Source of the DNA: a virus
Virus record (IMG/VR): IMGVR_UViG_3300043673_000021
Coordinates: 33,626-97,625 of that record
DNA length: 64,000 nucleotides
Reading direction: 5' to 3' (one strand)
The position numbers were made by a program, and so were the translations under genes. Positions 39,166 through 40,373 of the stretch are shown here, one piece after another. Below the pieces are notes generated by a model. It did not search any database. It saw only the letters and a program-made list of their open reading frames with translations, and was not told the DNA's origin. Each line of letters starts with the position of its first letter. Position 1 is the first letter of the stretch.

Positions 39166-39514
39166 ACGTTTCTGCCCCCCCCGCGTTAAGGCACATAGAA
39201 ATCTCGGGAACTCCGCTCATGCTTGCCTCTGATTCGATCAAGCCAAGCGTTACAAGCCTGTGGCAATTGGGGCACAGAACCATAACATTGCTAGGGTGAT
39301 AACCAGCTACTGGATTATGCCGATGGCGATCGCAGGGTGCCTTGTCCCATCCGCAGAGTTCACATTGAGAGTTGTCGATGATGCGCCTATTGCTTGGCTC
39401 ATCCCGTCGATGGCATCCATGGCAAAGGCGGTCATATCGCGGATCTCCGTTTGGAGTTCTCCCCTTATTTCTCGCTAGATTTTCGCAGCCTTCGGTTTCG
39501 CAGATCGGCCTCAT
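39155..39514 (-). CDS. HNH endonuclease splitting the MTase
   Basis: CELCG...DRHRH...NVMVLCPNCHR; tail (EISMCLNAGG) looks like MTase variable-region sequence. Confidence 0.8.
   Translation of the reverse strand: MRPICETEGCENLARNKGRTPNGDPRYDRLCHGCHRRDEPSNRRIIDNSQCELCGWDKAPCDRHRHNPVAGYHPSNVMVLCPNCHRLVTLGLIESEASMSGVPEISMCLNAGGAETYGR
39175..39182 (-). repeat. G8 homopolymer at a frame break in the MTase variable region
   Basis: Removing one G gives CLNAGGQKRMDAESETFV, continuous with ORF 37567..39165. Confidence 0.8.
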
Positions 39515-39566
39515 TTACCCTCCAACACAAAATATCCATGCGCCTCATCGACACTTCCGCGCGCCG

Positions 39567-40373
39567 TCAACGCTGGCACGGTATGACTTTCCCCTCGTTC
39601 ACAAACTGATTCCCAACCGTTTTGCTGTCCCGAGCACATAGAGAGCCTACTGTCTGTCTGTCTGTCTGTCTGTCTGTCTGTCTGTCTACGAATTCGCGAC
39701 CGACTCCAGAGCCAACCTCAGTTGCTTTGGCAATTCTTTTCCGCGCTTCTCTGCGCGTCGGAGGATGCCGGCGCAAGCTCGCGGACTCAAGAAGTATTTC
39801 TCCGGGATCGGGCCCGCCCACAGGACATCCGACAACGAACACACGTTCGCGTCGTTGGGCCACGCCGAAATATTGGGCGTCGAGAAGTCTCCACGCGAGG
39901 CGGCGCTTGGGTCCATCAACCATACCCGCGTCGGTCCAGCGCTGTCCTCTTGCTGGAACGAGTGCGGAGTCCGCTCCCGCCAGCGCTCCCAGAAAGCACC
40001 CGAAGGCATTATCTGAGGTGGAGAGCACTCCAGGTACGTTCTCCCAAACAATTCCTCCAGGGTTAATTGCATCGCAGATCCTCACGAAAGTTAGACATAA
40101 ATTAGAACGGTCATCATCGAGAGAGCCACGAAGACCAGCCACGGAAAACCCTTGGCATGGCGTTCCTGCCATCAGCCAATCGATCTTTCCGAATACCAGG
40201 GCCCGAGATATAAAATCGGATGCTGTTATGTCCCCCAAGTTAGGGACATCGGGTCGGTGGTGCGACAGCACGGCGACTGGAAACTTCTCAATTTCCGCGC
40301 ACCACTTCCACTCGATATCCGGCATCGCGGTTTCAGGAGCGCCAATCCCAGAACACACCGTTGCGCCGGTCAC
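39567..40373 (-). CDS. C5 cytosine methyltransferase, N-terminal catalytic part (motifs I-VIII)
   Basis: CSGIGA, AEIE, GDI, GTPCQGFS, WENVPG, QRRERVF; GTG 40373 overlaps the upstream stop. Confidence 0.92.
   Translation of the reverse strand: MTGATVCSGIGAPETAMPDIEWKWCAEIEKFPVAVLSHHRPDVPNLGDITASDFISRALVFGKIDWLMAGTPCQGFSVAGLRGSLDDDRSNLCLTFVRICDAINPGGIVWENVPGVLSTSDNAFGCFLGALAGADSALVPARGQRWTDAGMVDGPKRRLAWRLLDAQYFGVAQRRERVFVVGCPVGGPDPGEILLESASLRRHPPTRREARKRIAKATEVGSGVGREFVDRQTDRQTDRQTVGSLCARDSKTVGNQFVNEGKVIPCQR
39651..39686 (-). repeat. Tetranucleotide microsatellite (GACA)9 in the MTase coding sequence
   Basis: (TGTC)9 on the plus strand; encodes DRQTDRQTDRQT. Confidence 0.96.
39686..40072 (-). 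CDS. Overprinted MTase beta-type subunit (M.EcoHK31I-like arrangement)
   Basis: Alternative frame within the MTase; GAGG RBS; CSLSDVL...KYFLSPRACAGILRRAEKRGKELP..L..AL. Confidence 0.75.
   Translation of the reverse strand: MQLTLEELFGRTYLECSPPQIMPSGAFWERWRERTPHSFQQEDSAGPTRVWLMDPSAASRGDFSTPNISAWPNDANVCSLSDVLWAGPIPEKYFLSPRACAGILRRAEKRGKELPKQLRLALESVANS

Follow-up and report, generated by a model that had tools for sequence, protein, structure and literature searches.

A question raised by this locus is what a change in the number of units of a simple repeat would do to the product of the phage gene that contains it. The window, meaning the whole stretch of 64,000 nt analyzed here, covers positions 33,626 to 97,625 of the IMG/VR record IMGVR_UViG_3300043673_000021, whose full length is 97,625 bases; all coordinates below are window positions. 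Near the 3′ end of a putative DNA methyltransferase gene, the minus-strand letters read T-AG-(ACAG)9-TAG, and Tandem Repeats Finder describes the tract as period 4, 9.5 copies, with 100% matches. Tetranucleotide tracts of at least four units should be very rare in such a genome: 200 first-order Markov simulations of the 97,625-base record give an expectation of 0.005, and one was found, which puts the nine-unit tract about 200-fold above expectation. The tract is thus a perfect repeat, long enough to slip and placed within a reading frame, as contingency loci are. The main features of the locus are these.

37567 to 39165, minus strand: C-terminal subunit gene, 532 codons and intact, with further variable-region modules and motifs IX-X
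39155 to 39514, minus strand: HNH endonuclease gene between the two methyltransferase halves, with its own GGAGG a few bases before the ATG
39175 to 39182, minus strand: G8 tract at the start of the C-terminal half, out of frame, 470 bases from the GACA tract in the same locus
39650 to 39687, minus strand: A(GACA)9G tract, perfect, giving three DRQT repeats in the methyltransferase frame
39686 to 40072, minus strand: “beta” ORF, 128 codons, in an alternative frame inside the N-terminal gene, its TAG abutting the tract
39690 to 40373, minus strand: N-terminal (catalytic) subunit gene upstream of the tract, GTG start at 40373, with motifs I-VIII and the first linker module

The two outer ORFs are halves of one C5 cytosine methyltransferase, as seen when uninterrupted homologues are aligned to the region by tblastn. 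Both match Pfam PF00145, the N-terminal ORF at profile positions 8-164 and the C-terminal ORF at positions 256-323, so that the first carries motifs I-VIII with the proximal variable region and the second the distal variable region with motifs IX-X. Matched from its first residue onward, the N-terminal subunit is 80% identical to the protein P0002, a neighbor of P0003. Repeated module-like segments are visible in the enzyme and match modules of its relatives. Sequence searches of the PDB give alignments confined to motifs I-VIII and IX-X, with the tails discussed below falling in the unaligned variable region.

A natural precedent for the two-piece layout is M.AquI, a two-subunit C5 methyltransferase split within the variable region, the part of these enzymes that carries specificity; its small subunit supplies the rest of the variable region together with motifs IX-X, and engineered splits in the proximal half of that region withstand the removal of residues (PMC3404938). 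The halves in the window divide in the same way, and the split enzyme is predicted to be active. Unlike the window locus, M.AquI is without a repeat tract, alternative tails, an HNH gene between the halves, or an embedded third ORF.

The embedded ORF deserves separate mention. A similar ORF is open in 73 of the 87 homologous loci scored (for example at 1566-1982 of L001, and in most of L002-L096), and in the beta frame tblastn outscores the main frame over the same DNA; codon usage makes both frames coding-like there. The gene called at this locus in the protein collection is the beta ORF, for which a Pfam search returned no match. Its C-terminal part resembles a proximal variable-region segment that is read in the main frame in ordinary C5 methyltransferases. 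As in enzymes of the M.EcoHK31I alpha/beta type, a second polypeptide is encoded in another frame inside the alpha gene; unlike those enzymes, beta in the window does not supply motif IX, which is found in the C-terminal ORF. The beta TAG (39688-39686) shares its last two bases with the start of the tract, so the unit number cannot alter beta, just as the sequence-only reading had it, and the tract lies at the first base of the N-terminal gene that is free of the beta overlap.

What follows the tract depends on the number of units. Translation in each frame reproduced the tract and all three outcomes originally proposed from the letters, so that an altered unit number gives an altered predicted product in every case.

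39567 to 39649, minus strand: frame a tail, read with 9, 6, or 12 units; 27 codons containing module A, then TGA at 39569-39567, for a subunit of 268 aa
39511 to 39651, minus strand: frame b tail, read with 10 or 7 units; 46 codons ending in TGA at 39513-39511, for a subunit of 288 or 284 aa
39647 to 39649, minus strand: frame c TAG, read with 8 or 11 units; an immediate stop giving a tail-less subunit of 240 or 244 aa

Frame b first crosses module A out of frame for about 20 codons and then reads module B, and its TGA overlaps the HNH ATG (39514-39512) as ATGA. With the variable region carrying specificity, and with the precedent of NgoAV discussed below, the tract is best read as a slippage-driven three-way switch of the variable-region tail of the catalytic subunit in a two-piece phage C5 methyltransferase; we regard this as probable, with appreciable room for doubt. 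Slippage would change the unit number, and that number modulo 3 would set the end of the catalytic subunit: nine units would give module A, 10 or 7 a short spacer and module B, and 8 or 11 no tail, each form pairing with a constant C-terminal subunit. Because the tails lie between motifs VIII and IX, the target-reading part of the enzyme, the choice or the number of sites methylated by the phage most likely differs among the three forms. For the window phage itself the unit number comes from one assembly, and slippage there is presumed.

Are the two tails real variable-region sequence? When scored against the variable regions of 82 family members, with 200 shuffles as control, the 9-unit tail reaches 26.9 bits, a score attained by 0 of the 200 shuffles, and module B reaches 22.3 bits, which 4 of the 200 match or beat; the out-of-frame stretch that precedes module B shows no similarity to those 82 variable regions. 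Weak relatives of module B occupy the first-module position in L053, L046, L075, and L078, and no match was found for it among longer proteins. Codon-usage log-odds trained on the long ORFs of the record make every piece of the locus coding-like, and they assign each module to its own frame: over module A they favor frame a (+3.9 versus −4.3 and −17), and over module B they favor frame b (+4.6 versus −14 and −18), the only frame in which that stretch is coding-like. The openness of frame b across module A is reached by 13% of synonymous shuffles (P = 0.13), which is not significant alone.

A large protein collection supplied informative relatives. P0002, 80% identical over the whole subunit, is without the DRQT repeat, but its last 28 residues and its stop are those of the 9-unit product. 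The 9-unit product is thus conserved, and the interruption behind module A is of long standing, not a recent lesion; judged by this comparison, nine units is the conserved state. At the exact site of the tract (residues ~236-240), P0002 has a short alternating Glu-Arg run, which a (GA)n dinucleotide repeat could encode. Module A also occurs, residue for residue identical and in frame, in the full-length single-chain proteins P0004 and P0005, and in P0005 the segments aligning to motifs I-VIII and to motifs IX-X of M.HhaI lie on either side of it.

A more distant relative, P0011 (63% identical, found in two contigs, the longest 57.6 kb), has a DRQT-type repeat of about 8 units at the same site, its repeat and frames being deduced from the protein alone. 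After the repeat comes a stretch like the out-of-frame module A of the window, then a different module, and then a stop. The P0011 tail can encode, in the +1 frame, 17 residues identical to module A, which 0 of 20,000 shuffles can; differences between P0011 and the window in this stretch are therefore silent in frame a. Judging by these substitutions, selection is apparently acting on module A even in P0011, a genome caught in frame b. The second module of P0011 matches an in-frame module of P0030, as 0 of 2,000 shuffles do, and it is not alignable with module B of the window. Since this second module is real yet unlike module B, the shared feature is the layout: a repeat, module A, and a module in another frame.

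Searches by other routes returned little at close range. Both flanks of the tract, used as exact patterns in viral, metagenome, and genome collections, yielded no near-identical contig; an exact-protein cluster look-up for the window phage found nothing; and the contig of P0011 itself was not among the matches of a scan of viral contigs guided by that protein. The tetranucleotide tract was seen in 0 of 167 other loci of the window's methyltransferase family in viral contigs, many of which carry poly-G in the same region.

The layout reappears in an unrelated setting. A scan of viral contigs for seven GACA units gave at least 118 loci (L097-L214), of which at least 43 contain the N-terminal half of a C5 methyltransferase; in at least about 36 the tract lies inside that ORF near its 3′ end, with GACA always on the coding strand. 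The main family comprises at least 32 contigs with GC near 0.39, in which (GACA)7-18 sits in a split C5 methyltransferase with Pfam positions 2-214 before the tract and 245-322 in the following ORF. Its three frames after the tract resemble those of the window: a stop within three codons, a module and stop, or a spacer across that module followed by a second module. Among the 32 low-GC contigs listed, the three phases are represented 11, 11, and 10 times, and contigs whose 530-base flanks are at least 99% identical carry 7, 8, 10, 12, and 15 units. The second frame is open over the first module in all eight of the diverged lineages tested (synonymous-shuffle P = 0.004-0.14), and some variants keep one module alone, either the first or the second (L110 and L168). 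In short-query BLAST the window tails match the low-GC tails no better than shuffles do, so it is a shared layout that is claimed across the families, not homology of the modules. The low-GC locus had no match among GenBank phages by megablast.

Methyltransferases of this type are not the only genes so divided. Among the matches listed, GACA tracts of 7-29 units, always on the coding strand and in varied phases, also split several other genes: a PAPS-reductase-like family (Pfam PF01507 before the tract), Type I HsdS genes in which the tract lies ahead of an extra specificity domain (L179), an N6 methyltransferase-like ORF (L114), and a reverse-transcriptase-like ORF (L196). From this distribution, GACA appears to serve widely as a contingency repeat in the DNA-modification genes of these phages.

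The core of the original proposal, that the tract selects among three C-termini rather than switching the gene simply ON or OFF, is supported by the shared end of P0002, by the other frame found in P0011, and by the low-GC layout; the change in specificity is deduced from the position of the tails. P0011 lies in the other open frame, and the low-GC family keeps its second frame open. The two modules are not joined in one frame in the two nearest relatives that have module A at this position, an arrangement that would have pointed to a simple frameshift in the window.

The alternative that survives best is plain ON/OFF switching, in which only the 9-unit frame works and module B is the leftover, without a role, of an allele invaded by the HNH gene. 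In its favor, module A shows a very strong conservation that module B lacks, and the openness of frame b in the window is, as noted, not significant. HNH elements of this kind are indeed found within methyltransferase genes and can leave a duplicate of adjoining gene sequence: the closest relatives of the window HNH, at 44-45% identity, are in L215 (2228-2689) and L216 (798-1316), immediately before or inside C5 methyltransferase genes of the window's family, and in L216 the HNH ORF begins with a duplicate of the methyltransferase motif I segment, with the methyltransferase restarting just after it. Against this, P0011 keeps an intact and different second module and is found in the second frame, the low-GC family holds its second frame open against expectation with three phases equally frequent, and the codon usage of module B is coding-like when read in the frame that belongs to it. 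The tolerance of split C5 enzymes to changes at a proximal break (PMC3404938) also speaks against forms other than the 9-unit one being simply off. On this evidence plain ON/OFF switching is doubtful, but it deserves to be kept in mind.

It is considerably less likely that the locus is a decaying gene, a methyltransferase broken by HNH insertion and frameshifts in which the tract is a neutral expansion. Set against single-chain homologues, the locus does show an inserted HNH gene, an A/B junction that is out of frame, and a G8 likewise out of frame. Decay sits poorly with a stop after module A that is kept in a relative only 80% identical, with an intact 532-codon C-terminal frame among pieces that are all coding-like, with a tract so far beyond its expected frequency, and with the recurrence of the same repeat at the same place in other phage methyltransferases.

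Programmed −1 ribosomal frameshifting could in principle join modules A and B, leaving the tract as an in-frame linker only, since the frames meet at GGGG-AAA-G and frame b lies at −1 relative to frame a. Read in the zero frame, the junction is GAG GGG AAA GTC, with no canonical X XXY YYZ heptamer; P0002 is called with the same stop after module A; and a slip at the A/B junction does not explain why P0011 reads module A out of frame from the repeat onward. This makes frameshifting very improbable. Least credible of all is that the tract or its length is an artefact of assembly or sequencing: one assembly was seen and repeats can be miscounted, but at 38 bases the tract is shorter than a read, its flanks are unique sequence in good coding frames, and the same feature is present in independent contigs of other phages and in P0011.

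A further idea, that the switch may also alter translational coupling to the HNH gene, had been put forward from the stop-start overlap. The ATGA overlap is there as described; the HNH gene has its own GGAGG, which makes the coupling idea weak, and coupling as the main effect of the tract was set aside on account of that ribosome-binding site. Residence of an HNH gene within a methylase gene has itself been described, for the homing-type ShiLan-domain HNH element found inside a phage DNA methylase gene (PMC11855218). The HNH gene of the window likewise lives within a methylase gene; the ShiLan work concerns the element itself, without repeats or alternative tails.

The three-way tail switch can be set beside several known systems. 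Type III mod phasevarions resemble the window in that a repeat lies in a methyltransferase ORF and variation in unit number shifts the frame; they are described as ON/OFF systems of adenine (rarely m4C) enzymes in host-adapted bacteria, with off frames that are empty. In the window, by contrast, conserved modules stand in the off frames, and the gene is a phage gene. Phage enzymes with several tandem target-recognizing modules between motifs VIII and IX are familiar from the C5 methyltransferases of the Bacillus phage SPR, phi3T, and rho11s type, and the window enzyme shares this arrangement. The SPR-type enzymes are single chains in which all modules are in one frame and always expressed; in the window, one position would be chosen by frame.

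A close mechanistic parallel is NgoAV, a Type I system of Neisseria gonorrhoeae in which a poly-G tract at the 3′ end of hsdS1 changes specificity rather than merely abolishing it (PMC9577141). In both cases a simple repeat ending a specificity-bearing ORF decides, or in the phage would decide, which of the specificity segments downstream is added. NgoAV, an adenine system of Type I, is encoded on the chromosome of a bacterium and uses a homopolymer that gives two useful states; the window has a phage C5 enzyme, a tetranucleotide repeat, and two modules in two frames plus a tail-less state. No restriction partner for the methyltransferase was seen in the window.

The other long repeat of the locus invites a related question. 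The G8 tract is the only homopolymer of length 8 or more in the record, where about 5 are expected, and homopolymers of 7 or more number 5 against about 20 expected. Because homopolymers are depleted across the record in this way, the two long repeats of the methyltransferase locus stand out even more. The homologous site holds an in-frame G8 in L223 (2557-2564) and L224 (4763-4770), and out-of-frame tracts that split the gene in L225 (G9, 4742-4750) and L003 (G10, 4787-4796). In the low-GC family, poly-G varying from 6 to 10 is found at the start of the C-terminal half, in parallel to the G8 of the window. The poly-G site looks like a second phase-variable switch, judged from these alignments, and the homopolymer lengths could also be sequencing error.

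Taken jointly, these patterns might mean that many phages assemble a cytosine methyltransferase from pieces, with variable-region modules picked by simple repeats. This broader proposal is tentative, and we hold it with much less assurance than the switch at the GACA tract itself. Within it, (GACA)n may pick module A, module B, or none, while poly-G may decide whether the C-terminal subunit starts with an extra module, so that one locus may yield six or more enzymes with different target sets. The GACA tract, common to unrelated lineages and to other modification genes, may also be a junction for module-swapping recombination.

Descriptions of GACA repeats or of alternative-frame tails in phage C5 methyltransferases were not found in the literature, with partial coverage of subscription journals, and the arrangement looks like an undescribed route for phages to vary DNA methylation. 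Bacteria are known to use repeat-driven phase variation of methyltransferases, mostly of the ON/OFF kind. Here the putative switch is in a phage C5 cytosine gene and would choose between variable-region modules in two frames, and the same design is seen both in soil-type high-GC phages (the window and P0011) and in dozens of low-GC contigs, where the unit number varies naturally. Under the three-way tail switch, a phage population would always hold several methylation types, and so hedge between two kinds of host, those with restriction enzymes that methylation blocks and those that attack DNA once it is methylated. Gene callers report only one frame at such loci. If the forms do differ in target, these phages would be hedging their epigenetic disguise against host restriction and methylation-dependent restriction alike, which would affect the annotations made by gene callers as well as host-range prediction and methylome-based linking of phages to hosts.
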